In this document: in pieces, positions 14,345 to 44,841 of the stretch | Layout of the letters: each line of letters opens with the position of its first letter | Numbering within the stretch: the first letter of the stretch is position 1 | IMG/VR virus record: IMGVR_UViG_3300046786_000370 | Coordinates: 15,927 to 79,926 of that record | Reading direction: 5' to 3' (one strand) | Length of the DNA: 64,000 nucleotides | Source of the DNA: a virus | Lineage: Duplodnaviria; Heunggongvirae; Uroviricota; Caudoviricetes | The notes under the pieces: model-generated | The model's database searches: none | The model's input: only the letters and a program-made list of their open reading frames with translations | What the model was told of the DNA's origin: nothing | Translations under genes and position numbers: made by a program

Positions 14345-14863
14345 TTAATTCTCCACTATCATCACTAAATGTAATCTTTTTTCTGTACTTCCATTCATGA
14401 AAGTATGCGGTTTAGTTGTATCCACCCACGTTGTACGACCATCTGCCGGCAAATGAAACATGACCATTGGATCTGTAATTAAAAAATTACATTGTGTATT
14501 AGTTACCAATGGCAAATGTAGTCTGGGACTATAGTCTTTGTGAATACTATAACATCCTTTTTCACGGGCTAACATTATTCTTGCTCTATACACAGGCACT
14601 GCCAGCCATTTAAAATAATCATCTATAGCAGTGCCTATTAGGCTAGGCTGTAAATGACAGAATTTATGTTCCCAGTCTTTAGTTTTAGCTGTACTATGTC
14701 CTGTGCCAGCTAACCAATTATCCACTGAAGGATCATCAGTTTGAATAGAAACTTGCCCGTCGGATCTATATTCCCAATCAACATATAATTTTGCTAGTTT
14801 TACGCATTGCTCGACTACTTCATTATAGCGAGGATACGCTGGCTTAAATTCTTTGTATAACAT
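14345..14863 (-). CDS. small 2OG-Fe(II)/cupin oxygenase (paralog family)
   Basis: [13 protein letters not shown], an HxD...H arrangement. Confidence 0.45.
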
Positions 14864-14871
14864 ACAATTAT

Positions 14872-15372
14872 TTATGAAAGTATGATATCCACTGCGGCAT
14901 CTTCACTGATATAATCATCAGTAGTAAAATGCGGATATTTCGCAAGAATTTTTGCTGTGCCTACATAAGCAAACCATCTATAATCAACTTTGCATTTTGC
15001 TACTTCAGCATAATGCTCTGACAGATATTTTAATGACGATTTCTCAGCATGATAATATCTAAGATGTCTATATTGCATACCAGTTAGTGAGTCATATTGT
15101 GCAATTCTACTGCCCACATTGATAATTCTTTTTTCAGGCAAATCTATCCAAGCATTTAACATATCAATTAACATATATGATTGTGCAAAATTTTCTGTGG
15201 CATTGTTTATAAACACGTCACAGTCGTAGCTTTCGTCGACAATTCGTTGCCTATCTTTTTTCTTATTAATGTCATAACCAGTGCTTCGACTGAATCCAAT
15301 TGAATTTGGGCTCAATCGTTCGAATGCTCTGAGTCCAATTCCTTCAGTATGGCCTGTAATCGCATATTTCAT
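14872..15372 (-). CDS. SDR-like NAD(P)-binding protein (paralog of 60945..61532)
   Basis: ITGHTEGIG glycine-rich N-terminus. Confidence 0.4.
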   Translation of the reverse strand: MKYAITGHTEGIGLRAFERLSPNSIGFSRSTGYDINKKKDRQRIVDESYDCDVFINNATENFAQSYMLIDMLNAWIDLPEKRIINVGSRIAQYDSLTGMQYRHLRYYHAEKSSLKYLSEHYAEVAKCKVDYRWFAYVGTAKILAKYPHFTTDDYISEDAAVDIILS

Positions 15373-16040
15373 TTATGTGCTATCCTTATACTAACGCCTA
15401 ATTTAGATTTACTCATCATTCTTCCTGTAGAATGTATGTGCTGACTGTCAAATACTATAGCTGATCCCGGAGTCCAGGAATATGCTGTTCCGCTCATGCT
15501 ATAAAAATAGTCACGTTCGAAGTGTTGACTGTCTATGTGTTGCCAAATTTCCTGGGGTAATTCAGTATTTGTACCACCTTGGAAAAATTCCCCATCACAG
15601 GGCCTTGAATTTGTTTTCTTATTACTGTAGAAATCACCGTCAATTTCAAAATTGCCTAGCCATGTAATATTCTTACCCTGCCAACGTTGATCAAATACAA
15701 TAAACTTTTGATCCTCTCTGGGCTCAAATCTTTGAATTGGTATAACAATATTCAACCATGCTTTATCTTCTATAGCGTCACAATGTGGAAAGTAACTGTG
15801 ACTGTGCTTATAAAAGTTGTCGCCTACAATTTTGTAGGGTTCATTTATGTTCAATTTGCGTTCAATCAAATTTGTAGCAAATTCATTGAATTCAATTTCG
15901 TCAAATGGCAACAATACTTTGTCCATGCCATGGCTGAATATGTGGTCATGACTGAGAAATATTTGCTTTAAATATTCTAATTCTGAATCAGTGACAATAT
16001 TTTCAACTAATTTGTGCATGTGTTTATTTAAGCCACGCAT
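15369..16040 (-). CDS. hypothetical protein (possible oxygenase)
   Basis: PHCDAIED...QHIHSTG looks like a loose HxD...H motif. Confidence 0.35.
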   Translation of the reverse strand: MRGLNKHMHKLVENIVTDSELEYLKQIFLSHDHIFSHGMDKVLLPFDEIEFNEFATNLIERKLNINEPYKIVGDNFYKHSHSYFPHCDAIEDKAWLNIVIPIQRFEPREDQKFIVFDQRWQGKNITWLGNFEIDGDFYSNKKTNSRPCDGEFFQGGTNTELPQEIWQHIDSQHFERDYFYSMSGTAYSWTPGSAIVFDSQHIHSTGRMMSKSKLGVSIRIAHK

Positions 16041-17043
16041 ACAATTTTTCAGCCTGGCCCTGTGTATGCCATTTATTGTCCCAATCTACGGCCCATTTCT
16101 TATATAAATCTATGCTTTTTAATTTGTCTGTGGTTAAATTAAAATATGGAAGATTTTTATCCCAATATTGTTCTGCGATATGCCTGGGAAATAGATTCAA
16201 TCCTGCGTGTTTCGGATATACAATTGGAAATGTATGTACAGGCAATTTCCAAAATTCCACAGTCTTCGGATAATCAGCTATAGTCCACGGCGTTACGCTG
16301 TAACTTATACTGGCATTACTGTTGTTTTTAATTATATCAACAGAGTCTAATAGTTCATCCCAGCTTGCGTCACGTCGAAACCATTCATAAGTGTCTTTGT
16401 AGCCTTCTATGCTAATGCTACATTGTACACTGGCCCAGCCTTTCCACAGATCCAATCTGGGTTTGATCAATCCATTTGTAATATAAACTAATTTACAATG
16501 ACTTCTATCGTAGTTACTTAAATGTTCTAATATTTTATAATGTGCGGGATCTAGAAATGGCTCGCCACCTGTGAATTTAATGTGATCCAAATTAGGCAAC
16601 AATTCGACTAATTCGGCCAGGAATTCATCTGTAACATCAAACGCATTTATAACATGTGGACTAATTCCCAACAATTTGCGCCAGCCACTGCTACGCTCGG
16701 GTCCACAATGAGCACAAGTCAATTGACATTTGTTGCTCATTTTAAATTGTATTGCACGAATTTCTCTTTGTTCACTGATAAATTTAGTGCCTGTACGCAG
16801 ACTCTGTTGTCCGTGTTCTTCTACTTGTCTACATCTATAACAAGCATATTCAGTGTCTGCGGTATAGCCTGTAGAATTTAAGTTTTCTCTCAGTGTTAAT
16901 AACTTAGGATGATTAAATGCTGTTTTAATTCCATTTTGAATTGGACTGATTCTGGCAGCATTGTCTGTTTCGCCACAGCAGGGTCTTGTCCAACCATCTG
17001 TTTCGATGCTAACCATGTTTTCTACCCAAGCACATTTTTTCAT
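16024..17043 (-). CDS. radical SAM enzyme
   Basis: CQLTCAHC (Cx3Cx2C) plus FTGGEPFL; Cys-rich N-terminal extension. Confidence 0.65.
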   Translation of the reverse strand: MKKCAWVENMVSIETDGWTRPCCGETDNAARISPIQNGIKTAFNHPKLLTLRENLNSTGYTADTEYACYRCRQVEEHGQQSLRTGTKFISEQREIRAIQFKMSNKCQLTCAHCGPERSSGWRKLLGISPHVINAFDVTDEFLAELVELLPNLDHIKFTGGEPFLDPAHYKILEHLSNYDRSHCKLVYITNGLIKPRLDLWKGWASVQCSISIEGYKDTYEWFRRDASWDELLDSVDIIKNNSNASISYSVTPWTIADYPKTVEFWKLPVHTFPIVYPKHAGLNLFPRHIAEQYWDKNLPYFNLTTDKLKSIDLYKKWAVDWDNKWHTQGQAEKLYAWLK

Positions 17044-17528
17044 AAGTTATTGGCCTCGCAGAATTCTTTGACTTGTTTGTAATTTAAAGGCTGATTAAAT
17101 CCCATGCTGAACATATATCTTAGATTGTTTCTGTTAATTACACCGTGCTTTTCATGTGTGTTTAAAAGATAATAACAATCTGGCTCATAGTTTAATTCAC
17201 GAATGTTCATGACTTCTTCTTCATCTGATTGTGTACCATAATATGTTTGACTATCATTACCCACTAATAGCATATTCAAGGCGCAACTTCTAATCGCATC
17301 TGTATGGAATCTATAGAATTGCCATGGTGGCATTCTAAATATAACAGGAACAGCATTAAATTGTTTGATTAATTTCACAATAACAGGATCATCTTTAATC
17401 AATGATTCGTGTACCATGGCAATATCAAAGGCATTTTTATGAATCCACTTAGTGTAATTGCTTTTTGCAAAATCAGTTAGTTGGATTCTACATGTACTTG
17501 TTGATGTTAATTTACTAAATTGTTCCAT
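17040..17528 (-). CDS. small 2OG-Fe(II) oxygenase-like paralog
   Basis: FHTDAIRS...HGVINRNN...R motif. Confidence 0.45.
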   Translation of the reverse strand: MEQFSKLTSTSTCRIQLTDFAKSNYTKWIHKNAFDIAMVHESLIKDDPVIVKLIKQFNAVPVIFRMPPWQFYRFHTDAIRSCALNMLLVGNDSQTYYGTQSDEEEVMNIRELNYEPDCYYLLNTHEKHGVINRNNLRYMFSMGFNQPLNYKQVKEFCEANNL

Positions 17529-18094
17529 GCCGCTAATCTTTTAAATGTGTTGTCGAAATTGTTGTCATGATATCTAATGCTAAAACAATATCTATATTCA
17601 TTGCTGTCATTGCTAATATTATGCGGTACACATACTTCTACCAGCGTTAATTTGTTTAAATTAACACCGTCTATTTTTTCACAGTCTGTGACATTAAAAG
17701 GCATATAACCAGTGCCTGCTTCTGTTACACTATATTTTGTATTAGAATTTAAAAGCCTGTACCAATTCATTGCGCCTATGCCGTTAACAACATAGTTAAT
17801 AGCACTTTTACTATCAAATGAATTGCCGTCGATGTGTATTCTTGTAAACGTTTTTGGCGGCGTTGTAAACATTTGAACTTCTCTTAGTTGAAATCCTAAT
17901 TGACTAAGTTTGTCAATTACTTCGTCAGTTAATACAACATTGGGCTGATATCTTCTAATTGGCTGAAATTCCCCGGGGATTTCAAAGTCACTGCGAATTG
18001 GATTGTAATCTGCAATTTCAAAATAATTCATTCTAGAAAATCCTTCCAATATTCCCTGGCATTGAACAATGGCTTTGGCACAGGAGGATCCCAA
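17507..18094 (-). CDS. small 2OG-Fe(II) oxygenase-like paralog
   Basis: IHIDGNS...PHNIS motif. Confidence 0.45.
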   Translation of the reverse strand: MGSSCAKAIVQCQGILEGFSRMNYFEIADYNPIRSDFEIPGEFQPIRRYQPNVVLTDEVIDKLSQLGFQLREVQMFTTPPKTFTRIHIDGNSFDSKSAINYVVNGIGAMNWYRLLNSNTKYSVTEAGTGYMPFNVTDCEKIDGVNLNKLTLVEVCVPHNISNDSNEYRYCFSIRYHDNNFDNTFKRLAAWNNLVN

Positions 18095-18588: not shown

Positions 18589-18591
18589 AAA

Positions 18592-19215
18592 CTATTTACT
18601 TTTAATAGTCTCCCAATTAAAGTTCCATGCTGTGTCTAATTTTTCATAGATGACCCATTGTGATGTGTATTGTATAGTAACTGGGAAAGTAACTTCGTTG
18701 AAGTTGCTATAACAGAAATGACGTGGCTCTCTGGGTGTTCGACTTTCTCCCAGTCTAGTTCGCTTCCATATAGCAATGATGTTTTTGTTGTAGTCATTGA
18801 ATGTTAGAGCAACTTGTTTACAGTTGTTTTTAATTGCCCATTGTTTATGCTCTGGTAACAAATAGTTTCTAGCAATGTTTTGATTTCTGTATTCTTCTGA
18901 TATCCATGTTCTAGTGCCAGCTAGTGCTATCAGTGAATTTGTTGCCAGTTTAGCAACACCGCCGCAGGCAATCGCTTTCTTGCCATCATAGACTACATAA
19001 AATGCACCTTCTTGTCCTTGGTATTTGTTTGTTTTTATTAGGATATAAGGCAGGGTGTTGGGTTTGGTATCCCAATGATCGTCCCACATATTTGCCCACG
19101 CAGGATCATCTGTTGTTTGTTGTTCTCGGAGAAAGTTAAAAAACTCAGTGACTTTTTTATCGCTGAGTTTGTAAAAGTCAATGACCTTCATTTTCGTATA
19201 ATTTGAATAACCCAC
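18592..19215 (-). CDS. hypothetical protein
   Basis: 207 aa ORF. Confidence 0.4.
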   Translation of the reverse strand: MGYSNYTKMKVIDFYKLSDKKVTEFFNFLREQQTTDDPAWANMWDDHWDTKPNTLPYILIKTNKYQGQEGAFYVVYDGKKAIACGGVAKLATNSLIALAGTRTWISEEYRNQNIARNYLLPEHKQWAIKNNCKQVALTFNDYNKNIIAIWKRTRLGESRTPREPRHFCYSNFNEVTFPVTIQYTSQWVIYEKLDTAWNFNWETIKSK

Positions 19216-19928
19216 TTAGTCACGTCAAATTCCCACCACTTGACTTGAAAACTGTAGTTGTAAGGATCGCCATGATGATTGTTGTGCCATCCTTCGCCCC
19301 AAGCAATTAAACCAGCAATCCAATTGTTTTTACTTTGTTCTCTTGTATCAGGATAATTTCTATAACCATACTTGTGTCCTAGATAATTAACTAGGCCCAT
19401 AGCAGTCCATAGTATAAAGCTAGGGAATACGTGGAATACCATCCAAGCATGAACTCCGCCGATTAGGTATAACGCAATGGCATAAGCGATGTTTATTTTC
19501 CAATAGTTTTCGTGAACTTTAAGCTGAAATTTATCACGAAGCAAATCAGGAACATATCTAACCTTAGGTTCAGCAAACATACTGCCATAAAAGCAATGTA
19601 CAAAACCCATGTATCTATTTGGAGTATGTGGATCATCTAGTTCTTTGTCGCTGTAACGATGATGTTGTCTATGAACGCTGACCCATCCAATGCTGGATCC
19701 AACACCGCCCAGTGTGCCTAATACTGTGCCAATTTTGCGAAATATATCCAGCGTTTCATAGCTTTTATGTGTAAGCAATCTATGAAAAGTAACTGTAATG
19801 CCTAGACAGCCTGTGATAAAGTAGACGGCAAAAGCGGTTGCATAGTCTATAGATGTAAATGTCATTATACAATAAATGACTGATACGTGGCAGAATAATT
19901 GCCACAAAGGTAGTTTGTATTGTTCCAT
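19188..19928 (-). CDS. membrane fatty-acid desaturase
   Basis: His boxes HRLLTH, HRQHHRY and WHNNHH. Confidence 0.75.
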   Translation of the reverse strand: MEQYKLPLWQLFCHVSVIYCIMTFTSIDYATAFAVYFITGCLGITVTFHRLLTHKSYETLDIFRKIGTVLGTLGGVGSSIGWVSVHRQHHRYSDKELDDPHTPNRYMGFVHCFYGSMFAEPKVRYVPDLLRDKFQLKVHENYWKINIAYAIALYLIGGVHAWMVFHVFPSFILWTAMGLVNYLGHKYGYRNYPDTREQSKNNWIAGLIAWGEGWHNNHHGDPYNYSFQVKWWEFDVTKWVIQIIRK

Positions 19929-19929
19929 G

Positions 19930-20502
19930 TCAGTATTTATCGGGGTCGCTGTCCAAGACTTCCCAGCCTAGCTTTTTCAAATCTGCTTTAATTTCATCTG
20001 TTACAACACTTTCGCTGACATAGGATTTAGATTCAATATATTGTTCTTGCTGTTCTTTGCTTAGTTCAGCAAACTGCTCGTCTAATAGCACAGGGCTATC
20101 GTTACGAATACCACTACAGTACCAATCAATATAGTCGCCTTGTTCGCGCATATCAGCAACAATTCCACCAGCATGGCGCCAACTACAACTCCAAGTCTTG
20201 CCTGCTAGCTTAGGCATAAATTCATTCTTTTGAAAGTCGTTGTTGCACATGGCCGCATAGAGATTCTGAGCATACGATTCTTTAGCACGAACCTTTTCAA
20301 GTATCCAATCAGTACTGCGAAGATCATACTCCATGTTATTTTCCTGCCATTCGGGATCTTCCATGTTAGCTTGATCCTGTTCCCTCCATGACTTGTACAT
20401 ATTAATGTAGTCTTGGTTAGGCAATTTACCTTGTTCTTCACAGCGTTTCACATATCCTTCTTTTTGAAAGGTATGACGATCTGGACTAGTTGATATTTTC
20501 AT
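19930..20502 (-). CDS. hypothetical protein
   Basis: 190 aa ORF. Confidence 0.4.
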   Translation of the reverse strand: MKISTSPDRHTFQKEGYVKRCEEQGKLPNQDYINMYKSWREQDQANMEDPEWQENNMEYDLRSTDWILEKVRAKESYAQNLYAAMCNNDFQKNEFMPKLAGKTWSCSWRHAGGIVADMREQGDYIDWYCSGIRNDSPVLLDEQFAELSKEQQEQYIESKSYVSESVVTDEIKADLKKLGWEVLDSDPDKY

Positions 20503-21227
20503 TATTCAAATTCCGGTAAACTAGGAGCATATACTCCCAAATGTCGAACTGTCACGGCGGCAGCTCTATTCGCATACATTATAGCATCTTCTATGTTATT
20601 TGTCTTTAAGTAAAAATAGCACAGAGTTGCCAAAAATGTATCCCCGGCGCCACAGACATCCACAACTTCTACTAGGGGCGCCGGGTACATTTTCTCTTTA
20701 TATAAACAACCATCTTTGCCCATTGTAACAATTATGTCTGTGGGTACCGAGGTTGTTGTGCTATGTTCAAAATCATTGATCTTAACATAGCATCCTTCAA
20801 ATCTTTTTAAATCTTTTTTCTTTGTATCTACGAAAATTGGACCCGAATATTGTTGCCTGAGTTGTTCGACAAATTCATAGGTTATAGTTCCTTTACAATA
20901 GTCGCTGACTACTATGGCATCATACAAACTTAAATCTACATCAACTTTGAGTGCTGTACAATTTTTGTCTTCGTCTATTCGTAGCATGTGTTGATGACTT
21001 TTAATGTCTAACATTCTTGTTTTAACATTAGTGTCTGTGTGTCTGTAATCAACTGTACAGTGCAATGCTTGTAGATTGCGTTTGACATTCCCAGCCATGC
21101 CAGGAATCTTTTGATAGTGATCCAATTTAACAATTGGAACCGGAGCTTCAGGGCTTAATCGTTCTACGTGACCGTATTGATATATGTCAACACAATCGTC
21201 CCCGCATAATAAAATTTTATAGCTCAT
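20502..21227 (-). CDS. PfkB-family sugar kinase, HldE/RfaE domain-I-like
   Basis: N-terminus ILLCGDDCVDIYQYG...LSPEAPVPIVKL matches the heptose-7-P kinase block; DVCGAGDTF ATP-site motif. Confidence 0.6.
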   Translation of the reverse strand: MSYKILLCGDDCVDIYQYGHVERLSPEAPVPIVKLDHYQKIPGMAGNVKRNLQALHCTVDYRHTDTNVKTRMLDIKSHQHMLRIDEDKNCTALKVDVDLSLYDAIVVSDYCKGTITYEFVEQLRQQYSGPIFVDTKKKDLKRFEGCYVKINDFEHSTTTSVPTDIIVTMGKDGCLYKEKMYPAPLVEVVDVCGAGDTFLATLCYFYLKTNNIEDAIMYANRAAAVTVRHLGVYAPSLPEFE

Positions 21228-21279
21228 ATCCTGTTTTATTTAACTTGGAATTTCGTTATCCATATCTATAAATATTATT

Positions 21280-21834
21280 ATGAAATTGCACACAGAAATA
21301 GATATCCCTGACGTAGAATCAATTAGAACACAGGCTTTAAAAATTATCAGTCCTGATAATTATAACGATGCCAAACCTTTATTTGCTAATATACCAGATA
21401 GCAAAAACGTATTTTTAGGCATACCCGAACTTAAACGATTCTTAGACCGCCAGGGCTGGACTGGATATATTACAGGAATAATGTTCAATGTTATTCAAGC
21501 TAAAACTGTGTCATTGATACATACCGATGCGCCTATGTTCAATAAAAGTTTCAATATACCGCTATGTGGATATGAAGAATCTTATGTTGATTTCTTTGCC
21601 AAAAAAGCTGAACCTACTCTTGTCAATGATGGTAACAATGCTATTTCAACTGAATTTAGATATTGGACATTTGAAAGAGAAGATGTAGAATTAATTGAAC
21701 GTTACAAAACTTCTGGTCCGTATATGCTAAGAACTGAGGTGCCGCATCAAGTAATAAATGATGGACCATCTAAACGTGTTAACTTGTTAGTAAGACTAAG
21801 TCACAAATTAGATATATCTAAGCACTATGTTTAA
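21280..21834 (+). CDS. small 2OG-Fe(II) oxygenase-like paralog
   Basis: IHTDAP...NIPL...PHQVIN...RVNLLVR. Confidence 0.5.
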   Translation: MKLHTEIDIPDVESIRTQALKIISPDNYNDAKPLFANIPDSKNVFLGIPELKRFLDRQGWTGYITGIMFNVIQAKTVSLIHTDAPMFNKSFNIPLCGYEESYVDFFAKKAEPTLVNDGNNAISTEFRYWTFEREDVELIERYKTSGPYMLRTEVPHQVINDGPSKRVNLLVRLSHKLDISKHYV

Positions 21835-21837: not shown

Positions 21838-21914
21838 TGGTCGGAGTACAAGGATTCGAACCTTGGACCCCCTGGTCCCAAACCAGGTGCGCTACCAGAC
21901 TGCGCTACACTCCG
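21838..21914 (-). tRNA. tRNA-Pro (TGG)
   Basis: Cloverleaf folded by eye with GGTTCGAATCC T-arm, anticodon loop TTTGGGA and encoded CCA. Confidence 0.65.
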
Positions 21915-21921
21915 AATTAAT

Positions 21922-21996
21922 TGGTGGGTGATGAGAGGATCGAACTCCCGACAAACTGCGTGTAAGGCAGCGACTCTACCGCTGAGCTAATCACCC
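21922..21996 (-). tRNA. tRNA-Val (TAC)
   Basis: Folded by eye: acceptor GGGTGAT/ATCACCC, loop CTTACAC, CCA encoded. Confidence 0.65.
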
Positions 21997-22003
21997 TGTA
22001 TTT

Positions 22004-22216
22004 TTATTTAACTTCTTGCTTCTGTAGTTTATCAAACTTTGAAACTAATCGTTCATCGTTATAAACTTCTGTAACAGAAGGATCTGTTTTCTTTTCAGCT
22101 TCTATTTCCTTAGAGACTTTATCTCTGCCGAAAATAATGTCCCATCTATTGTTATACTCTTCTTGTGTAACGCTAAATGGGCGTGGTGCTGAACCTTTAC
22201 CTGCTTCATGTGCCAT
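22004..22216 (-). CDS. hypothetical small protein
   Basis: ORF trimmed to the internal Met (MAHEAGKGSAPRPF) because the longer form overlaps tRNA-Gly. Confidence 0.35.
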   Translation of the reverse strand: MAHEAGKGSAPRPFSVTQEEYNNRWDIIFGRDKVSKEIEAEKKTDPSVTEVYNDERLVSKFDKLQKQEVK

Positions 22217-22237
22217 AATGAATCCTTTATAATAATT

Positions 22238-22311
22238 TGGAGCGGGATAACAGAATCGAACTGTCAGCATTAGCTTGGAAGGCTAAGGTATTACCACTAT
22301 ACGAATCCCGC
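22238..22311 (-). tRNA. tRNA-Gly (TCC)
   Basis: GCGGGAT acceptor, loop CTTCCAA, T-arm CAGTTCGATTCTG. Confidence 0.65.
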
Positions 22312-22597
22312 ATCTTATTGAAACACACTTAAACCGTTCTTCAGTGCTATGGACACTATCTCCTAATCCAAGTAGGCGTAGGGTATGTGCTTCAATAAAA
22401 TGTCTAGCTACTCTCACCACAAGAGCCCTAGACCGAGCTGTTACTCTGTCCACGTGCTTTTCCATTTAGACGGGCAACGTCCCCGCCTTTGTGATTTCTC
22501 AAGTCGCTTTAAACAAGCCTTGCGGTAGATCCAATGCACCGTGCCGTTAAGGTGTAGCAATTACCTAACTCTGTTACGTTGAGTTAACACGGGGTTT

Positions 22598-22672
22598 GGT
22601 TGCGGAGGATGGATTCGAACCACCGTCTCCCAGGTTATGAGCCTGATAGTCTGACCTCTGACGTACTCCGCG
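22598..22672 (-). tRNA. tRNA-Met/Ile2 (CAT)
   Basis: Loop CTCATAA, T-arm GGTGGTTCGAATCCATC. Confidence 0.6.
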
Positions 22673-22684
22673 GTAAATATATTT

Positions 22685-23230
22685 ATGGTTAACTGTCTTA
22701 ATATAAACTTAGATATAAATCCTCTGAGAGAAGGTTTAGATATAAATTCATTTGACAAAATTAGACATGTCAAATTTTCGTTTGATGATATCAATCCTAA
22801 ATTAATTTCATTTTTTAATAATTTAAATTTAACAGTAACATGGGCAGAACTATTTTATGTTCCATCTTTCTTTTGTACTACAATACACACTGACATCGAC
22901 TGGCGTGGCAAAGAAAATGACTACACTAAAATAAACTATGTGTTCGGCGGCAAAGATAGTCGAATGTATTGGTGGAAGATTAAACCCGGAGTATCAAATA
23001 CAATTGAACGTACAGCCTTAAGTAGTCAGTATATAAATTACAAACAGGACCAAGTTGACCTAATCGAAGAACAATCTATTGGCTTTCCTAGTATAGTTCA
23101 AGCTGGGATACCACACAATATACGAACTTTTTCAGAAGCTAGACGCTGCCTAAGTTTAGTATTAAGAAAAGAATATAATACTAGATTAACTATGGCAGAG
23201 TCTATAGAAATATTCAAAGAATATTTATAA
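22685..23230 (+). CDS. small 2OG-Fe(II) oxygenase-like paralog
   Basis: IHTDIDW...PHNIRT...R. Confidence 0.45.
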   Translation: MVNCLNINLDINPLREGLDINSFDKIRHVKFSFDDINPKLISFFNNLNLTVTWAELFYVPSFFCTTIHTDIDWRGKENDYTKINYVFGGKDSRMYWWKIKPGVSNTIERTALSSQYINYKQDQVDLIEEQSIGFPSIVQAGIPHNIRTFSEARRCLSLVLRKEYNTRLTMAESIEIFKEYL

Positions 23231-25482: not shown

Positions 25483-25483
25483 A

Positions 25484-31758: not shown

Positions 31759-31804
31759 GTTGTCCTCATTAAAAAATTATAAAGTATTTAAGAAATTGTG
31801 CCAC

Positions 31805-35919: not shown

Positions 35920-36591
35920 TTAACTCCAAAGTAGGTCAAAGTTTCCTTGTAGCACTTTTTTTGTACTGGATACTTTGTCGGTTATGTGATCTTGTACCCT
36001 ATCATCTTGAAAGCGGTACGTTCTTATTTTATCTCCTCGCATCCCGGAACCAACTTGTTCTCGTCTATTTGAGGCTATACTGTTATTATACTCTGCGCTG
36101 ACTATGTTGTCAACTTTATTGGTTATTGTAGACATTGCTTCGTTATAACTGTTTTCTCTACTGCGGCATTGTGCTGTAGCAACTATACCAGAAGGTATGT
36201 GTGTTATGCGGCAACTGTTTTGATGTTTATTGCGATGTTGTCCGCCAGCACCAGTTCCGCTGTACCATTCTATTTTAAGATCCCGTTCAGCGATAGTTGT
36301 TTTAACTATTTCGGGATCTACAATGGCCACGGTTACTGTGCTGGTATGTACTCTGCCTTTACGTTCAGTGGGAGGAACACGTTGTATTCTATGTCCGCCA
36401 CTTTCGTTATACAAGCCTGATAAATCAGCACCCTCGACTAATATATGTACTTCGCCAAGATACTCACCTATTAGGCGGGTAGTTCAGCCAAGTTTACCAG
36501 CGAATTTTGTATATGCTTGAGCAAGGTCTTTGACAAACAACTTGCTGTCTTCGCCGCCTTCTGCGGCTCTAATTTCTATAACTCGTTTCAT
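35920..36591 (-). CDS. class-I peptide chain release factor homolog (RF1-type PPT motif, GGQ; lacks domain 1) with one in-frame TGA
   Basis: Hand translation: MKRVIEIRAAEGGEDSKLFVKDLAQAYTKFAGKLG-TGA-TTRLIGE...ESGGHRIQRVPPTERKGRVHTS...GTGAGGQHRNKHQNSCRITHIPSGIV...RTYRFQDDRVQDH; a single frame from 36591 to 35920 broken only by TGA at 36486..36484. Confidence 0.7.
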
Positions 36592-38425: not shown

Positions 38426-38429
38426 TACT

Positions 38430-38705: not shown

Positions 38706-39071
38706 TTAATCTGCCTGACGTGTTATATAATATTCTCTAATCGCACCAGTGTCAAAATGTTTGATTACACTTTGCTTAACTGTTTCTTTGTCAAACTTTT
38801 TACAACTGAAAACATCTAAATATATCTGTTTTGTACTATCGACAAAATGTGCTGATATGTGCGATGTTACAATAGCTTGTATAGCTGTGTATCCACCTTT
38901 ATCTGGTTGATCCATTGCTACTTGCGTGATCCACGGTTCGCCCACTGGCTCCATGTCAATATTATTAACTAGACTTTTAATCCAGTGTTCGATATTATCT
39001 TTGTCCTGCATTTTTTTAAGATCGCATTGTCCGCAATCCAACATCAGATGATGACCCCAATATTTTTTCAT
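38706..39071 (-). CDS. S-adenosylmethionine decarboxylase-like (SpeD/SpeH family)
   Basis: HLMLDCGQCD...SHISAHF...YLDVFSCKKFD. Confidence 0.55.
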   Translation of the reverse strand: MKKYWGHHLMLDCGQCDLKKMQDKDNIEHWIKSLVNNIDMEPVGEPWITQVAMDQPDKGGYTAIQAIVTSHISAHFVDSTKQIYLDVFSCKKFDKETVKQSVIKHFDTGAIREYYITRQAD

Positions 39072-39179: not shown

Positions 39180-40361
39180 ATGATTAATAAGAAACTAGGG
39201 TACTATACTGTAGGCGAATTCGAATTTGATTCAAAGATACAGGCCTGCTTATTTGCTAATAAAAACAATCAAGAAGTTTCTTGGCACTTTAACGAAAACG
39301 TTTTTAAAAACTATCCGTGGTCCAAAGAGCCTAGTGAATCATTGGATCAACTCTACGATCGTCGAACTAGACAACTTAGAGAAGAATACGATTATATCAT
39401 TATCAGCTATAGTGGCGGCGCTGATAGTCATAATATTGTAGAAAGCTTTATACGTCAAGGTTTACACATCGACGAGCTTATAATCAATACCATGGAAAAA
39501 GGCAGTAGCAAATTTACTGTTGTTGATCCTAACATAAAGAATCCAGAAAATGCGGCCGCAGAGCATCAACTACAAACAATACCAAGACTTAAAGAAATAC
39601 AAAATCGTATTCCAAAAACTAAAATAACTATTTTAGACCTGACGGATCACCTGTTTGATAGTTGGCTTAATGTTGGCGATGCCAGTTGGGTTATGGATAA
39701 GAGAGAAGGCTTGAATCCACTAAATGTAACCAGATTTAACTACATGCATTTCAGTGATGTAAGAAAACAATTTGACAAAGACAAAAAGATTGCGCTAATA
39801 CTAGGCGTCGAAAAGCCCAGAACATTTATTCATTCTAATAATAAGTTTTATATACGATTCACTGATAGAGCAACAAACATCATTACAATAGCCGAACACA
39901 TAAAAGAATACCCAAACGCTGTTGTTGAGTATTTTTATTGGAGTCCCGATAGCTGTGATATTTTATGTAAACAAGCTCATGTAATTAAACGTTGGCTGGA
40001 AGCCTTTCCGGAGAATCAGCCAATGTGGTTTCATAAAAATATGACTGCTGAATCTTTTAGATTAACGCACGAACGAATACTAAGAAATCTCATGTATACA
40101 ACGTGGGATCCTACATGGTGGCAAGCAGACAAAGCGACCAAAGACTGGTACAGTGAATTCGACTCTTGGTTTATCAAAGGATATGCGGGTACTAAACAAC
40201 ATAGTATTTGGTTAGAGGGTATCAACTACATAAGAGATAATGCCAGTAACTTTGTTAACAATAGTCACGGTTACGATGATGGACTCAATGTATTTGCTTA
40301 TAACTTTCCTGTAGCAGAAATGAATCCGCCAATCAACGTCGACAAGTTGTTAAACAATTAA
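39180..40361 (+). CDS. PP-loop ATP pyrophosphatase family protein
   Basis: IISYSGGADS (SGGxDS) motif; 393 aa. Confidence 0.6.
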   Translation: MINKKLGYYTVGEFEFDSKIQACLFANKNNQEVSWHFNENVFKNYPWSKEPSESLDQLYDRRTRQLREEYDYIIISYSGGADSHNIVESFIRQGLHIDELIINTMEKGSSKFTVVDPNIKNPENAAAEHQLQTIPRLKEIQNRIPKTKITILDLTDHLFDSWLNVGDASWVMDKREGLNPLNVTRFNYMHFSDVRKQFDKDKKIALILGVEKPRTFIHSNNKFYIRFTDRATNIITIAEHIKEYPNAVVEYFYWSPDSCDILCKQAHVIKRWLEAFPENQPMWFHKNMTAESFRLTHERILRNLMYTTWDPTWWQADKATKDWYSEFDSWFIKGYAGTKQHSIWLEGINYIRDNASNFVNNSHGYDDGLNVFAYNFPVAEMNPPINVDKLLNN

Positions 40362-41290
40362 ATTTTATATTTCTCTGCTCTGAGATCGTTTGGACATGGG
40401 CAATACTTAAATGGACATAGTATATCTTTTTTATCTAAGATAAAATTATTGATACGTCCCAATGATTTTGCCTTACATAAGCCTGCGCTAACTTCGCCAT
40501 TAAATCTAACTACCAAGCTTTGACTGGTTACCTTACAACGCCAGCCTTCAAATTCATTCCAATTATTAATAGTAATTTTACCTAGAGATAATTCTTCTAT
40601 AGAACCATCGTCGAAATAGACCATTGAGTTAACAAAGTTATCAGAACTAGTTGGTGCACCCATGTGAGTTTTGATCCACGTAGACTGTTCGTCTGTGTAT
40701 ATATAATTCTTTTTTGTATCTGTACCTATATAATTTAAAACCTTGGGCATTACAACACCACGAAGACTTGGAGTTATATTGTTATACAATTCTAAAACTG
40801 TGTCCCAGTTAGCAGGGTCGCAACTAAGGTTAAACAGAATAGAAGTGCCCGAATCAACTATAAGCTTTGATACTGCGTTTACTTTGTCTATTTTTGTAAA
40901 CTCTGGATGTAAGGATATTGTTACGTTATCTAAAAAAGGTAACGCTTCTTCCCACCATTCTTCACTTCTAGATCCGTTTGTTGTTACACCTATATAAACT
41001 TTTTCTGAGTGCATGTATTTTATAATGTCTAGAAAATTAGGATGTAACGTTGGCTCACCACCACCAAATTGAAGATTTATATGTGTTCCTTCTTCGGCCA
41101 ATGATTTTAATGTGTTCATAAAGACTGTAATGTCTTCATAGGATGGAAAGCCGGGTACTTTACCAGTGGCAAATTTTCCATTATGTAAAAAATCCGGACA
41201 GTAATTACATTTAAAATTACAAAAATCCGTAAGCATCCAATATACGTTAACAGTTGGTTTCTTAGGTATTATTTTAATAGGCTGTTTCAT
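40358..41290 (-). CDS. radical SAM enzyme with a Cys-rich (SPASM/twitch-like) C-terminal region
   Basis: CNFKCNYC plus GGGEPTL; C-terminal CKAKS...CPFKYCPCP; start trimmed to avoid tRNA-Phe. Confidence 0.6.
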   Translation of the reverse strand: MKQPIKIIPKKPTVNVYWMLTDFCNFKCNYCPDFLHNGKFATGKVPGFPSYEDITVFMNTLKSLAEEGTHINLQFGGGEPTLHPNFLDIIKYMHSEKVYIGVTTNGSRSEEWWEEALPFLDNVTISLHPEFTKIDKVNAVSKLIVDSGTSILFNLSCDPANWDTVLELYNNITPSLRGVVMPKVLNYIGTDTKKNYIYTDEQSTWIKTHMGAPTSSDNFVNSMVYFDDGSIEELSLGKITINNWNEFEGWRCKVTSQSLVVRFNGEVSAGLCKAKSLGRINNFILDKKDILCPFKYCPCPNDLRAEKYKI

Positions 41291-41305
41291 TCTATTATTT
41301 ATAAG

Positions 41306-41380
41306 TGGTGCCACAGACTGGACTCGAACCAGTAACACAAGAATTTTCAGTCCTCTGCTCTACCATTGGAGCTACTGTGG
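41306..41380 (-). tRNA. tRNA-Phe (GAA)
   Basis: Loop CTGAAAA, D-arm GCTCCAATGGTAGAGC. Confidence 0.65.
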
Positions 41381-41382
41381 CT

Positions 41383-41916
41383 TTATATGTGATTGGTTTC
41401 TCGTAACATATCAAGAGTTTGATCAAAATTGTATTTGTAAGATTGTAGCACCAATGCAATTCTATCTACTGGCTCTGTGCCTATGTTTTTAACACTATGC
41501 GGATTAGACACATTTAATAACCACGCATCTCCGGATTCAGCTATAAACGATCCAGTAAATTCTAAATCATCTTCTTTGAATGTTCTGCCAGTTGTTTGTG
41601 TTGTCATTTTTACGCCGATATCACTGTCTACATTTTTATAAAAATTAGTTTTACAGTCTTTGGCTCTGACATAAAAATTTATTGTAGCAGATACATGACT
41701 GTCTGTATGCGGTGGAATATTATAATTTATTTTCATCTCGCGCACAAAAAAATCATCTCTGTACCTCTCGGGGATAACTGATAAAATTAAATCTTTATTA
41801 TAATCATCTACACCATACAATGAAATGCCTTTGCCATTGATAGCGTATGCGTTAATCAAGTTGGTTTCAGTAAATTTTCCAAGATCGAACTTTTTATTGA
41901 GTTTGGCGAATTGCAT
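41383..41916 (-). CDS. small 2OG-Fe(II) oxygenase-like paralog
   Basis: PHTDSH...NPHSVKN...R. Confidence 0.45.
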   Translation of the reverse strand: MQFAKLNKKFDLGKFTETNLINAYAINGKGISLYGVDDYNKDLILSVIPERYRDDFFVREMKINYNIPPHTDSHVSATINFYVRAKDCKTNFYKNVDSDIGVKMTTQTTGRTFKEDDLEFTGSFIAESGDAWLLNVSNPHSVKNIGTEPVDRIALVLQSYKYNFDQTLDMLRETNHI

Positions 41917-41945
41917 GATTATATTTATAAGGTATAAATATTTTA

Positions 41946-42491
41946 ATGAATAACCCCGACTTTTACCGACCGATACATATTGAAAACCTTAAAGAAATTC
42001 AAGAAGAGGTAATGAATCTGTTGCCAGAAAAATTACTCACTTACTCAAGCTTAACTTATATAGAAAATAATAAAGAAATTTTTTTAAGTTCTAATAAATT
42101 ATCTGATTACTTAAAAAGTAAAAAAATATATGATACTACTGGCGCCATTGCAGTTAATATTACTAAGGGTTTCGGTGCCGGAACTTATCACGTAGATAGC
42201 GGTCCGTATAAACATAGTCTAAATATACCGATTTCTGGCTGCGAAAATACTTGGATTAATTTCTTTAAAGTCAATAGTGATTATACCACCGTTACAGTAG
42301 AAAATGACGGGTTAGCTCATCGTTATTTTAGATACACAGAAGATCAGTGTGAATTAATCTATGAAGCAGAAACATCAGTGCCTTATCTACTTGGAACAAA
42401 AACTCCGCATCGTGTTATTAATAAATCAAACAATACAAGAGTTATGCTATTAGTAAGATTATTTTCTAGTCCTTATATAAATGAGTTATAA
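41946..42491 (+). CDS. small 2OG-Fe(II) oxygenase-like paralog
   Basis: YHVDSGP...NIPI...PHRVIN...RVMLLVR. Confidence 0.5.
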   Translation: MNNPDFYRPIHIENLKEIQEEVMNLLPEKLLTYSSLTYIENNKEIFLSSNKLSDYLKSKKIYDTTGAIAVNITKGFGAGTYHVDSGPYKHSLNIPISGCENTWINFFKVNSDYTTVTVENDGLAHRYFRYTEDQCELIYEAETSVPYLLGTKTPHRVINKSNNTRVMLLVRLFSSPYINEL

Positions 42492-43013
42492 TAGACTCAA
42501 TGGCTGACATTTAAACCCTATAGTAGCTGATAATCTTATATCAGTATTCTCTTCATTTATAAACACCTTGTGCGGGATTCCAGAATCAAAGACTATAGGT
42601 TCTGTTAATTCTAATTCATCAGATACTGTACATAATTCAGGATTCGAAATTTCTATATAAGGTAAATTATTAACACCCAATTTTTTTTGTAATTTAGAAT
42701 CATTTAGATTATAAAATACTGTTTTAGAACCACGACAGTTATGTACTGGCCACAGAAATCTTACATCACCGGCATAATCAACATGTAATATTCCTGAGGC
42801 AGTTAATTTAACTACAGCAATCATACTAATTTCTAAGTTAAATGAATCAGCCACTGCTTTTAGTTCGGGTATTGATTTCAGTACTTTTTTATAATTTAAT
42901 TCATTCCATGTTACTTTAGAATCTAGTACACTAGTATCATTTACAATATAATCATATAATTTATTTGATATGATTTGATGGTCGACTAAATTTAAAAATT
43001 TAAAAGGCTTCAT
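42486..43013 (-). CDS. small 2OG-Fe(II) oxygenase-like paralog
   Basis: LHVDYAGD...PHKVF. Confidence 0.45.
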   Translation of the reverse strand: MKPFKFLNLVDHQIISNKLYDYIVNDTSVLDSKVTWNELNYKKVLKSIPELKAVADSFNLEISMIAVVKLTASGILHVDYAGDVRFLWPVHNCRGSKTVFYNLNDSKLQKKLGVNNLPYIEISNPELCTVSDELELTEPIVFDSGIPHKVFINEENTDIRLSATIGFKCQPLSLL

Positions 43014-43027
43014 GCTGTTATTTAAGT

Positions 43028-43101
43028 TGGTGCCCCACGACAGAATCGAACTGCCATATTCGGATTACAAAACCGACGTAATGCCATTATACGAGTAGGG
43101 C
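43028..43101 (-). tRNA. tRNA-Thr (TGT)
   Basis: Loop TTTGTAA. Confidence 0.55.
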
Positions 43102-43108
43102 TAAAATT

Positions 43109-43184
43109 TGGGGTAAAGGATGGGACTCGAACCCACAACAACTGGAATCACAATCCAGGGCTCTACCATTGAGCTACCTTCACC
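43109..43184 (-). tRNA. tRNA-His (GTG)
   Basis: Extra G-1 opposite C73, loop TTGTGAT. Confidence 0.65.
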
Positions 43185-43185
43185 A

Positions 43186-43260
43186 TGGTGGTGATAGTTA
43201 GATTCGAACTAACGACCGGCCGCGTATGAAGCGGATGCACTACCACTGTGCTATATCACC
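43186..43260 (-). tRNA. tRNA-Met/Ile2 (CAT)
   Basis: Loop TTCATAC, acceptor GGTGATA/TATCACC. Confidence 0.6.
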
Positions 43261-43265
43261 TAATA

Positions 43266-43832
43266 TTATTGAGGAATAAAATACTGTCCTAATTCAGCAA
43301 CTAGTTTATCCCAAGTTGCGAATTCTCCAGTTTCGTTATCACCTATTGAATAACTAACACACCAACGTCCTTCGTCAGTGCTGTTAAATACTGTGTGAGG
43401 TATGCCTCCTTGTACAATACAAGGATGTTTTATTTCTGTTTCGTACAATAGGTTGCATTTGTCTTTATTAAAGACATAAGCGTATGTACCAGCTTTAGTA
43501 GTTCTTAATGCAGGCGTGTAGTCGGGTTGTACTTCGTACCATTTCATAGTACTACCATCAGCACCATATACCCAATTAAACTTAAACAAGTCTATGCCTA
43601 TAGTTTCGCCGTCGATATGAATCGTACGCCAAGTTTGCGGTGCTGTATAAAATAATTCAGAGAATACTATATTCAGTCCATGGTCATCTAAAAATTTAAT
43701 TACATCTGGATCGCGTTCGGATTTTGGTATCGGAAAATGCTGTGTAGAAGCTGTAGGATCTACACGAAGTTGTCGAACCATATTATAATTTGCTCTATGT
43801 GGTATAGATAATTCTTGAAATAACTTGTTCAT
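43266..43832 (-). CDS. small 2OG-Fe(II) oxygenase-like paralog
   Basis: IHIDGET...PHTVFNS; start trimmed to avoid tRNA-Arg. Confidence 0.45.
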   Translation of the reverse strand: MNKLFQELSIPHRANYNMVRQLRVDPTASTQHFPIPKSERDPDVIKFLDDHGLNIVFSELFYTAPQTWRTIHIDGETIGIDLFKFNWVYGADGSTMKWYEVQPDYTPALRTTKAGTYAYVFNKDKCNLLYETEIKHPCIVQGGIPHTVFNSTDEGRWCVSYSIGDNETGEFATWDKLVAELGQYFIPQ

Positions 43833-43856
43833 ATAACTATTTAGTAATCTTATAAC

Positions 43857-43933
43857 TGGCCGGCCCTGAGAGATTCGAACTCCCAACTTCCAGTTTCGAA
43901 GACTGGCACTCTATCCAATTGAGTTAAGGACCG
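43857..43933 (-). tRNA. tRNA-Arg (TCG)
   Basis: Loop CTTCGAA. Confidence 0.6.
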
Positions 43934-43937
43934 TTAT

Positions 43938-44027
43938 TGGTGGAAGCGGTGAGATTCGAACTCACGGACCGTTGCCAGTCGACAGTTTTCAAGACTGTTG
44001 CAATAAACCGGGCTCTGCCACACTTCC
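43938..44027 (-). tRNA. tRNA-Ser (TGA), type II
   Basis: 90 nt; loop CTTGAAA. Confidence 0.6.
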
Positions 44028-44029
44028 TA

Positions 44030-44215
44030 TTATGCTTGTTTATCTACGTTGCGACCTTTGTCGGGTTCTTCTATACGACCTTCTTTGGTGTATAGATATT
44101 GTACAACTTCGATGATTTTCTTTTGTGTGATAGGATCTTCCAAAGTTTTATATACAGTATTGCGATACTGATTATAAATCGTGTCCCATGCGTTATGTAT
44201 ACTTTGGATGATCAT
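44030..44215 (-). CDS. hypothetical small protein
   Basis: 61 aa ORF lying between tRNAs. Confidence 0.3.
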   Translation of the reverse strand: MIIQSIHNAWDTIYNQYRNTVYKTLEDPITQKKIIEVVQYLYTKEGRIEEPDKGRNVDKQA

Positions 44216-44221
44216 ATTATT

Positions 44222-44295
44222 TGGAGCGGGATAGGAGAATCGAACTCCTAACTAAACCTTGGCAAGGTTTCGTTTGACCATTAAACTAATCCCGC
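44222..44295 (-). tRNA. tRNA-Gly (GCC)
   Basis: Loop TTGCCAA. Confidence 0.6.
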
Positions 44296-44301
44296 ATTTT
44301 A

Positions 44302-44841
44302 TTATTTAATAAGATATTCTGGACTAATACCTTTAAAGCTACAAGTAAAACTTATTCTAGGACCTGGCAAGTCGGGTGGTGTGTAGACACCGTGCGGTAT
44401 ACCCGGATCAAAGAAAACTGGCTTTAATAATTCTAATCGATCTATTTCTTTAAGTGGAAAATCTTTGCCTATTCTCCACCAAACGTTGCCTTTTCCTTCG
44501 ACTACTCTTGTTATTGTATTGCCATTTAGATCATAAAATTTAGTATATGATCTTTGACAATTTCTAACAGGAAATAAAAACCTAATGTCTTTACCATCAT
44601 CTATGTGTGTTTCTTCATAGCCAATGCGTCTAAAAACAAACGCACTTATATCAACTGGCTGGTCGACAAATTTTTTAAGCTCGATGAACAACTCTGGAAT
44701 ATAGTTTTGTAATACACTAGTTGACACTGGTGTCCAATCTCTTTTTGCTTGTAAAATATCTGTACGATTTACAACAAAATCATAGAGCTTGTTTGCTATT
44801 AAAGTTTCATTTTCGATGTCAACGAATTTGTATATTGCCAT
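44302..44841 (-). CDS. small 2OG-Fe(II) oxygenase-like paralog
   Basis: THIDDGKD...PHGVYTP. Confidence 0.45.
   Translation of the reverse strand: MAIYKFVDIENETLIANKLYDFVVNRTDILQAKRDWTPVSTSVLQNYIPELFIELKKFVDQPVDISAFVFRRIGYEETHIDDGKDIRFLFPVRNCQRSYTKFYDLNGNTITRVVEGKGNVWWRIGKDFPLKEIDRLELLKPVFFDPGIPHGVYTPPDLPGPRISFTCSFKGISPEYLIK

Follow-up and report, generated by a model that had tools for sequence, protein, structure and literature searches.

The window analyzed here, a 64,000-nt stretch of viral DNA (IMG/VR record IMGVR_UViG_3300046786_000370, Caudoviricetes, positions 15,927 to 79,926; G+C content about 38%), contains a set of small oxygenase-type genes lying among transfer RNA (tRNA) genes, and we take it to be an accessory (hyperplastic) region of a large phage genome from an uncultured lineage. 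With good confidence, the locus as a whole is best explained as an accessory region encoding at least 17, probably 18, Fe(II)/2-oxoglutarate (2OG)-type enzymes that form three families, are old paralogs and stand in a zone of gene flux. The products are probably small stand-alone dioxygenase-type proteins, dependent on Fe(II) and 2OG, with a double-stranded beta-helix fold. The 18 genes are spread over about 30 kb, and a segment of roughly 36 kb (about 14-50 kb of the window) holds, together with them, four desaturases, three radical S-adenosylmethionine (SAM) enzymes, a carrier protein and an iron-sulfur (Fe-S) assembly protein; the last of these and the radical SAM enzymes, placed beside the oxygenases, amount to a large outlay on iron enzymes. 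Open reading frames (ORFs) are labeled by their window coordinates (e.g. 41946), and the positions of all features are collected in Table 1.

All 17 ORFs listed in an earlier, sequence-only reading of the window were found in place, and an eighteenth copy, absent from that list, was recognized in the C-terminal ~180 amino acids (aa) of the 468-aa ORF 30132-31538. The H-x-D...H metal triad and a following basic residue are present in 18/18 copies, so that the His/Asp/His/Arg positions were not lost as the set was examined more closely. The arrangement had been described as HxD...PHxVxN...R(+10); this is the exact consensus of the largest family (family A), and a looser form occurs in the other five ORFs. 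The basic residue is Arg in family A and in 24733, and Lys in the tandem triplet 28183/28827/29495 and in 15369. A loose version of the motif, H.D.{30,130}H.{9,13}[RK], matched 18/18 copies versus 5/72 other ORFs of at least 100 aa, and it also turned up in 16% of shuffled copies. Since the motif by itself is thus weak evidence, the assignment has to be carried by homology and fold. Searches of Pfam, PHROGs and NCBIfam with single candidate sequences returned almost nothing: the gathering threshold of PF05118 (22.6 bits) was exceeded by 14345 (25.2 bits), while 15369 scored 12.4 bits and the other 16 copies gave no match to this family. None of the 18 copies matched PF13759 or PF13640 at E values up to 1, and none of the four copies checked against NCBIfam/TIGR models, TIGR02466 included, gave a match.

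Family A was defined by BLASTP and hidden Markov model (HMM) searches iterated over the window's own ORFs. All-versus-all BLASTP joined nine copies, including the C-terminal ~180 residues of 30132-31538, and the iterated local HMM added 41383, 17040, 14345 and 18028 and then halted at 13 members (12 of the 17 ORFs listed earlier plus 30132). An alignment of the 13 sequences has exactly four invariant columns, corresponding to H82, D84, H155 and R165 of 41946. A profile built from them retrieved 182 metagenomic proteins, many of which are tagged PF05118, and in an alignment of 132 sequences of the family H-x-D is present in 132/132 and Arg at +10 in 130/132. The profile of these 132 sequences matched the solved structure of Cpz10 (E = 2.4e-9), and the family A residues H, D, H and R(+10) aligned with H115, D117, H160 and R170 of that enzyme. 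Profile searches connected the family to oxygenases through Cpz10 and through family A homologs tagged PF05118; of the copies themselves, only 14345 reached the threshold of a curated model. Judged by these searches, 14345 is a member of PF05118, the other 12 copies of family A appear to be distant relatives, and the remaining two families appear to lie outside it.

An AlphaFold model of 41946 (181 aa) had a mean predicted local distance difference test score (pLDDT) of 90, and its best matches among solved folds in a Foldseek search were Cpz10 (7v4f), followed by PHD2, AspH, PiuC and proline 3-hydroxylase. Among predicted viral structures, the best matches were many proteins annotated as 'uncultured Caudovirales phage', followed by hydroxylases of giant viruses and cyanophages. 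Cpz10 (PDB 7V4F/7V4M), an Fe(II)/2OG beta-hydroxylase of 182 residues, takes part in caprazamycin biosynthesis; H115, D117 and H160 are its iron ligands and R170 holds 2OG, and in the crystal structure of its R170A variant both iron and 2OG are lost. Like family A, it is a single-domain double-stranded beta-helix protein of ~180 aa in which the H-x-D...H...R(+10) pattern corresponds residue for residue. However, the identity is about 10% and the template modeling (TM) score 0.55-0.6, and Cpz10 is the product of a single gene in an actinomycete biosynthetic cluster, whereas family A comprises 13 diverged phage copies.

The remaining five copies do not belong to family A, so that instead of the single paralog family proposed earlier there are at least three sequence families of the same predicted fold. 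The triplet forms a BLAST cluster of its own (family B). Among 121 homologs, H119, D121 and H172 are invariant and K182 (+10) is present in 120/121; the homologs (~120) fall into three orthologous sets, none of which has a precomputed Pfam domain. Family B gave no Pfam, PHROG or NCBIfam match, and its profile found no sequence match in the PDB. The AlphaFold model of 28183 (pLDDT 95.5) nevertheless matched 2OG oxygenases best, namely PHD2, ABH2, EvdMO1 and others, and with both main-family models pointing the same way the copies did not prove to have unrelated folds. PHD2/EGLN1 and ABH2 (probability ~1, TM 0.43-0.57) share with the triplet the H-x-D...H triad and a basic residue on the last strands; they differ from it in having no detectable sequence similarity, and the triplet has Lys at +10 and a distinct N-terminal region of ~100 aa with conserved Trp residues.

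ORF 24733, previously listed as a probable copy, joined neither BLAST/HMM cluster, and as a single sequence it showed no link to family A. The pattern H165-x-D167...H215...R228(+13) is kept in 94-95 of the 95 homologs of its family (A5; R228 in 94/95), and an hhalign comparison with the triplet family (E = 1.7e-4 over 107 columns) placed H-x-D, the distal His and the basic residue in register. We therefore regard it as a distant member of family B, with its basic residue at +13. Its family profile had no match in the PDB; the family gave one weak match in 185,579 species genomes and is present on 35 viral contigs, which suggests that family B is essentially confined to viral contigs. The other copy listed as probable, 15369, stays only a probable oxygenase. 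An exhaustive search for its family (A6) yielded 70 sequences, with H86, D88, H203 and K213 conserved in 68-70 of them (K213 in 68/70). Its links to oxygenases are weak: hhalign to family B (E = 0.0019), the halogenase WelO5 in 3/70 members, and PF05118 (E = 0.14). No link was found from the single sequence to family A, from the family profile to family A or to the 24733 family by profile comparison, or from the profile to the PDB. Two oxygenase families lacking a curated model and found almost only in viral contigs would thus be represented in the window.

Across the four family alignments (418 sequences in total), the triad is invariant or nearly so. This is difficult to reconcile with the idea that the motif is coincidental in part of the set, especially in 15369, 24733 and the triplet, which would then be cupin-like or belong to some other type of beta-sandwich protein that lacks oxygenase activity. 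Such an explanation could draw on the frequency of the loose motif in shuffled sequences and unrelated ORFs, on the lack of Pfam, PHROG, NCBIfam and PDB sequence matches for family B and the 15369 family, and on the empty profile comparison of families A and B. We nonetheless consider it very unlikely, because the residues are conserved throughout 121, 95 and 70 homologs, the high-scoring triplet model resembles 2OG oxygenases more than anything else, and 24733 aligns with the triplet family with its motif residues in register. The alignments and models reported here document the conservation of the predicted fold and of the catalytic residues, and from them we infer catalysis by the 18 predicted oxygenases. 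In each enzyme, the H-x-D...H triad would bind Fe(II), the C5 carboxylate of 2OG would be held by the basic residue (Arg or Lys) some 10 positions past the second His, and the expected reaction would be hydroxylation of a substrate with release of succinate and CO2.

The relationships among the copies were then judged against related loci drawn from a viral contig collection (35 viral loci with 1-10 oxygenase genes per 20 kb; individual loci are designated L004 and so on). Paralogs within the window share at most 34% identity, and orthologs in relatives, wherever sampled, are 56-97% identical: the orthologs of 41946, for example, are 60-73% identical, those of 14345 up to 86%, and that of 25484 in L004 56%. 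On account of this difference, the copies must be old and individually maintained, and recent tandem duplication was rejected. Old, separate orthologous lines imply, as far as such identities can tell, that the copies serve different substrates rather than gene dosage. Of the two origins offered in the sequence-only reading, substrate diversification and repeated acquisition, the paralog and ortholog identities hence favor diversification over recent repeated duplication.

The same observations bear on the possibility that the oxygenases act mainly as a sink or modulator converting host 2OG to succinate, for nitrogen-status signaling or energy supply, with the prime substrate being secondary. 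One active copy would be enough for this purpose, and 18 copies, none more than 34% identical and each with its own orthologous line, would not be needed; furthermore, variable N-terminal regions and the carrier-protein operon described below point to specific substrates. A role of this kind was proposed for the 2OG oxygenases of cyanomyoviruses (Sullivan et al. 2010), and the window does encode an isocitrate lyase, a sodium:dicarboxylate symporter and a solute-binding protein, all of which touch the 2OG/succinate/glutamate pool. On balance, we think this explanation distinctly unlikely. The genes in question belong to a host-like metabolic block at 1298-8372, which consists of the symporter (PF00375), the solute-binding protein (PF00497), the isocitrate lyase (PF00463; 63% identity with a gene of Phage C48C1) and TerC, and which could bear on the supply of 2OG, succinate and glutamate for the oxygenases.

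A concrete handle on substrate comes from a conserved minus-strand operon (24733-33235) that physically links oxygenases to a carrier protein and includes one gene fusion. Its genes are translationally coupled, start codons overlapping stop codons, and follow one another in the order radical SAM enzyme, carrier protein, 468-aa fusion protein, triplet, 392-aa protein, desaturase, 25484 and 24733. Seven copies are assigned to it (the C-terminal domain of 30132, the triplet, 25484, 24733 and, by proximity, the fused N-domain partner). The position of the carrier protein is kept in L004, L005, L006 and L013, and the gene order of the operon in L004 and L005, both of which have an extra TylF-type methyltransferase; in L017-L020, the 392-aa protein is divided into two parts. 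A gene of its own encodes the N-terminal domain of the 468-aa protein in L006, L013 and L018-L021; this gene adjoins the carrier protein gene in L006 and L013 and is followed by a separate oxygenase gene in L006 and L018. Fusion of the two domains in the window ties, by the logic of such comparisons, two predicted activities together. The N-domain has the invariant residues D170, A172, S195, K196, N203 and R204 (D170-x-A172 and S195-K196...N203-R204), and the best matches of its profile in the PDB were pyridoxal phosphate (PLP)-dependent decarboxylases, at the D-x-A motif and with a non-significant E value of 0.6. This is a weak hint that the domain may be a small PLP-dependent enzyme; phmmer matches of the N-domain to tubulin were dismissed as chance matches.

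PF05118 includes the lipid hydroxylase LpxO. Given this and the neighborhood of the operon, the simplest guess is that the operon copies act on a lipid or carrier-bound substrate. The operon would then tailor a molecule that is bound to the carrier protein or derived from lipids or amino acids, working in the manner of LpxO/OlsC lipid hydroxylases or of natural-product beta-hydroxylases such as Cpz10. Should it yield a product, this would add a new class to phage-directed metabolism; otherwise, the locus would be a further example of cyanophage-type oxygenase expansion.

A second recurrent feature of the locus is the motif TAAATA-N5-ATG, which has 15 matches in the window versus 2.0 expected, a number reached by 0/100 shuffles. 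Nine of the 15 matches coincide with oxygenase start codons, and the others include starts of desaturase and radical SAM genes. The motif is often part of the full sequence TATAAATA, which contains TATAAAT, the sequence of the T4 late promoter, and the divergent pair 41383/41946 has 29 bp between its start codons, which hold two back-to-back copies of TATAAATA. TAAATA-N5-ATG recurs at oxygenase starts in L006 and L011. By analogy, it resembles the T4 late promoter, and the stand-alone copies among the tRNA genes would each have such a T4-late-promoter-like element of their own. If the element is a promoter of this type, the spacing typical of T4 promoters would set the start of the transcript on or next to the ATG, giving leaderless or near-leaderless messages. 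Several corrections of start sites rest on the position of the motif. The start of 15369 is probably at 16019, that of 17507, judging from its translation, at the ATG at 18031, and that of 43266 at 43832, because the TTG at 43886 overlaps tRNA-Arg; for the radical SAM gene at 40358, position 41290 is the probable start, that of the longer ORF overlapping a tRNA gene.

Late expression would also suit a different role, in which the copies are protein hydroxylases of the AspH, PHD or ribosomal-oxygenase type acting on virion proteins (collagen-like or tail-fiber proteins) or on host proteins such as translation factors. Family A groups with PF05118, whose founding member hydroxylates Asp/Asn in proteins, PHD2 and AspH are among the fold matches, and nine copies have the T4-late-promoter-like motif. 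In addition, bacterial and phage beta-hydroxylases have been predicted to modify tail-collar or collagen-like proteins (Iyer et al. 2010). On the other hand, no candidate substrate protein was identified within the window, promoter function and timing are deduced here from a sequence motif, and the operon copies, with their carrier protein and desaturase, fit small-molecule or lipid chemistry better. We regard this possibility as rather unlikely, although it deserves more weight than the 2OG sink. For the single-gene copies outside the operon, protein or small-molecule hydroxylation would be our guess.

The copies had also been described as placed immediately next to or between tRNA genes. This is true of 6/18 copies, which lie 1-14 bp from a tRNA gene (21280, 22685, 41383, 42486, 43266 and 44302), but the other 12 are at distances of 0.5-8 kb. 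ARAGORN and Rfam agree on 34 tRNA genes; every one of them is on the minus strand, within 21.8-49.2 kb, and together they cover all 20 amino acids. Enrichment of oxygenase genes at tRNA junctions was significant over the whole window (Fisher p = 0.01) but not within the 14-50 kb accessory region (p = 0.29), where desaturase, radical SAM and S-adenosylmethionine (AdoMet) decarboxylase genes adjoin tRNAs just as closely. Comparison with relatives pointed to gene flux. L004 is collinear with the window over 31.8-23.9 kb and lacks 22685-23230 and 20502-21834, these differences falling exactly at both borders of the Met...Pro tRNA island. In L006, a radical SAM gene lies between tRNA-Arg(tcg) and tRNA-Ser(tga), which are 4 bp apart in the window, and the gene order is reshuffled, compared with that of the window, in blocks of one gene or one tRNA. 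No direct or inverted junction repeats were found around tRNA-flanked genes beyond tRNA-tRNA and paralog similarity. The earlier notion of a recombination hotspot formed by the tRNA loci consequently held for the gains and losses, which in related genomes concern single genes at tRNA borders, and fell short as regards adjacency and junction repeats. Accordingly, the tRNA interleaving most likely reflects gene flux in the tRNA region and not a functional link with tRNA, and the single-gene copies there would be independently gained and lost cassettes. In T4-like hyperplastic or 'hot-spot' regions, accessory genes are likewise grouped with tRNA genes and vary in content between relatives. Unlike in those regions, the breakpoints here are at the very ends of individual tRNA genes and many inserted genes have the start-codon-proximal TAAATA-N5-ATG; neither flanking repeats nor homing endonuclease genes were seen.

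A function tied specifically to tRNA was judged unlikely in view of the p value of 0.29 and of the L004 island. The corresponding hypothesis, that the tRNA-adjacent copies modify tRNA or other nucleic acids by nucleoside hydroxylation or AlkB-type repair, would explain the interleaving and is supported by the close spacing of six copies to tRNA genes. Further points in its favor are that the triplet model matches human ABH2 (TM 0.5-0.57), that the substrate of Cpz10, the nearest relative of family A with a solved structure, is a nucleoside derived from uridine, and that tRNA-modifying JmjC enzymes are known. Yet the adjacency disappears as a specific signal within the accessory region, in which genes of other classes lie equally close to tRNAs; the same tRNA island occurs in L004 without flanking oxygenases; the ABH2-matching copies are not the tRNA-adjacent ones; and domain searches of the copies found no nucleic-acid-binding domain. 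We therefore hold this hypothesis to be highly improbable, more so than any other considered here.

These results can be joined into one proposal: the operon is a phage biosynthetic pathway for a multiply hydroxylated carrier-bound metabolite, the cassettes of the tRNA region are leaderless late genes expressed via TATAAATA, and family B is a virus-specific branch of the oxygenases. The metabolite would be lipid- or amino-acid-derived and built or remodeled during infection, and the TATAAATA elements would put the start of transcription on the ATG. As a combination, this proposal is tentative and, in our estimate, has a low probability of holding in all its parts. Several points weigh against the explanation given at the outset for the locus as a whole: (i) only 14345 passes a curated family threshold; (ii) profile-profile comparison of families A and B finds nothing, and their shared fold is derived from predicted structures with modest TM-scores to solved ones (0.45-0.6); (iii) 15369 is weakly linked to any oxygenase; (iv) the PLP assignment of the N-domain is not significant; (v) the lipid or carrier-protein substrate is drawn from gene neighborhood only; (vi) taken over the whole window, TATAAATA is no more frequent than chance would give (9 versus 8.65 expected); and (vii) the TAAATA motif could act in translation instead of as a promoter.

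Arrays of 2OG oxygenases have been described in marine cyanophages. Syn9 has ten tandem dioxygenases, 14/16 cyanomyoviruses have several 2OG oxygenases per genome with hot-spots near tRNAs, S-CREM1 encodes ten 2OG oxygenases with mutual identities of 0-41%, and S-SCSM1 encodes 24. The locus studied here is of the same kind as these published arrays of 10-24 enzymes. As in the T4-like cyanophages, many diverged dioxygenase genes of low mutual identity are present in one genome, clustered in variable regions with tRNA genes and host-like metabolic genes. The differences are, however, considerable. The cyanophage copies belong to TIGR02466, PF13759, PF13640 and JmjC/MINA, none of which Pfam families was matched here, whereas the families of the window are PF05118-like or, in two cases, have no curated model. 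No DNA or protein match to cultured cyanophages was found, and the lineage is an uncultured one, its relatives being contigs of 235-525 kb. Finally, the window differs in having seven copies tied to a carrier-protein operon, with a fusion, and cassette-like genes behind TAAATA-N5-ATG. Large aquatic phages thus appear to invest heavily in oxygen- and iron-dependent tailoring enzymes. To our knowledge, none of the 2OG oxygenase arrays of phages has an assigned substrate.

As for the genome itself, a near-identity DNA search with 21-45 kb of the window against 50,697 phage records gave tRNA-sized matches only, and tblastn with 41946 against the same records gave no match; the sole isolate match was one gene of Pelagibacter phage Mosig. 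By these comparisons, the source genome is apparently one without a cultured close relative. Close orthologs are found on contigs of 235,561, 289,863 and 345,731 bp and on viral contigs up to 524,565 bp, and tRNA genes are also present in 17/35 of the viral loci with oxygenase genes. A T4-like affiliation would agree with the T4-late-promoter-like motifs, yet the ClpP-type protease of the window is closest to ClpP of the jumbo phages Atu_ph07 and Phosso.

Table 1. Coordinates of the oxygenase-type genes and of other features of the window
Feature	Position	Strand	Evidence or remark
Family A oxygenase, 172 aa	14345-14863	-	Pfam PF05118, 25.2 bits; local HMM; TAAATA-N5-ATG
Family A oxygenase, 162 aa	17040-17528	-	Local HMM round 1, E 4e-5; invariant H/D/H/R
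Family A oxygenase	17507-18094	-	BLASTP to 43266, 29% identity, E 4e-13
Family A oxygenase, 186 aa	18028-18588	-	Local HMM round 2, E 5e-5; orthologs 84% identical
Family A oxygenase	21280-21834	+	Ends 3 bp from tRNA-Pro; own TATAAATA-N5-ATG
Family A oxygenase	22685-23230	+	12 bp from tRNA-Met; TAAATA-N5-ATG
Family A oxygenase, 182 aa	25484-26032	-	BLASTP to 30132 C-terminal part, 31% identity, E 3e-15
Family A domain, C-terminal ~180 aa of 468-aa protein	30132-30671	-	Local HMM, E 2e-23; invariant H/D/H/R
Family A oxygenase	41383-41916	-	1 bp from tRNA-Phe; divergent from 41946
Family A oxygenase, 181 aa	41946-42491	+	Modeled copy
Family A oxygenase	42486-43013	-	14 bp from tRNA-Thr; TAAATA-N5-ATG
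Family A oxygenase	43266-43832	-	Between two tRNA islands
Family A oxygenase	44302-44841	-	6 bp from tRNA-Gly, 14 bp from tRNA-Trp; TAAATA-N5-ATG
Family B oxygenase, triplet member 1, 215 aa	28183-28830	-	Model with pLDDT 95.5; fold matches
Family B oxygenase, triplet member 2, 222 aa	28827-29495	-	BLAST cluster; motif
Family B oxygenase, triplet member 3, 214 aa	29495-30139	-	BLAST cluster; motif
Distant family B member, 249 aa	24733-25482	-	H165-x-D167...H215...R228; last operon gene
Probable oxygenase, third family	15369-16019	-	H86-x-D88...H203...K213(+10)
Radical SAM enzyme, operon head	31805-33235	-	PF04055; TATAAATA 25 bp upstream
Acyl/peptidyl carrier protein, 75 aa	31531-31758	-	PF00550, E 1.3e-11; overlaps start of next gene
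N-terminal ~290-aa domain fused to oxygenase	30669-31538	-	Split and fused forms in relatives
Fatty acid desaturase, operon	26032-26844	-	PF00487, E 3.6e-14
Four paralogous fatty acid desaturases	19188-19928, 26032-26844, 47408-48166, 48163-48942	-	PF00487; mutual identity 34-38%
AdoMet decarboxylase paralogs	38706-39071, 46029-46400	-, +	PF02675; 41% identical
IscA/ErpA-type Fe-S assembly protein and three radical SAM enzymes	14020-14343, 16024-17043, 31805-33235, 40358-41290	-	
TAAATA-N5-ATG sites	14861-14874, 16017-16030, 19926-19939, 21269-21282, 22674-22687, 41288-41301		
TAAATA-N5-ATG sites, further	41914-41927, 41935-41948, 43011-43024, 43830-43843, 44839-44852, 48940-48953, others		
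tRNA island 1 (Pro, Val, Gly, Met)	21838-22672	-	ARAGORN, Rfam
tRNA-Phe	41306-41381	-	1 bp from 41383
tRNA island (Thr, His, Met)	43028-43260	-	ARAGORN, Rfam
tRNA island (Arg-tcg, Ser-tga, Gly-gcc)	43857-44295	-	ARAGORN, Rfam
Main tRNA array, 17 tRNAs	44856-49219	-	Interleaved with AdoMet decarboxylase gene and two desaturase genes

Other genes of the accessory region include a GNAT protein, a PfkB-type kinase and two short-chain-dehydrogenase-like ORFs, and a dCMP deaminase is encoded near the oxygenase genes. Two of the four desaturase genes sit within the tRNA array, and the AdoMet decarboxylase gene at 46029-46400 lies there on the opposite strand, between tRNA-Lys and tRNA-Tyr. The minus-strand ORF 35920-36414, which adjoins tRNA islands and two phosphatase genes, encodes a 164-aa protein with an RF-1 domain (GGQ) and just the tail of a PCRF domain, a truncated protein of the release-factor or peptidyl-tRNA-hydrolase type. 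Within the first tRNA island, the stretch from tRNA-Met to tRNA-Val (window 22126-22593) is 76% identical to L004 15855-16328. ARAGORN calls a tRNA-Gly(tcc) in this stretch in the window only and not in L004; the rest of it contains no long ORF and has no Rfam match, and may represent either a small gene or non-coding DNA that is conserved. In the related viral contig L011, ARAGORN predicts a tRNA-like gene with a four-base anticodon (gtaa) at 15147-15220, which may be a frameshift-suppressor-like tRNA or a prediction artifact. Lastly, the tRNA-Ile gene with anticodon TAT at 46495-46586 (minus strand) is unusually long, with 92 nt according to ARAGORN and 89 nt according to Rfam (54.9 bits).

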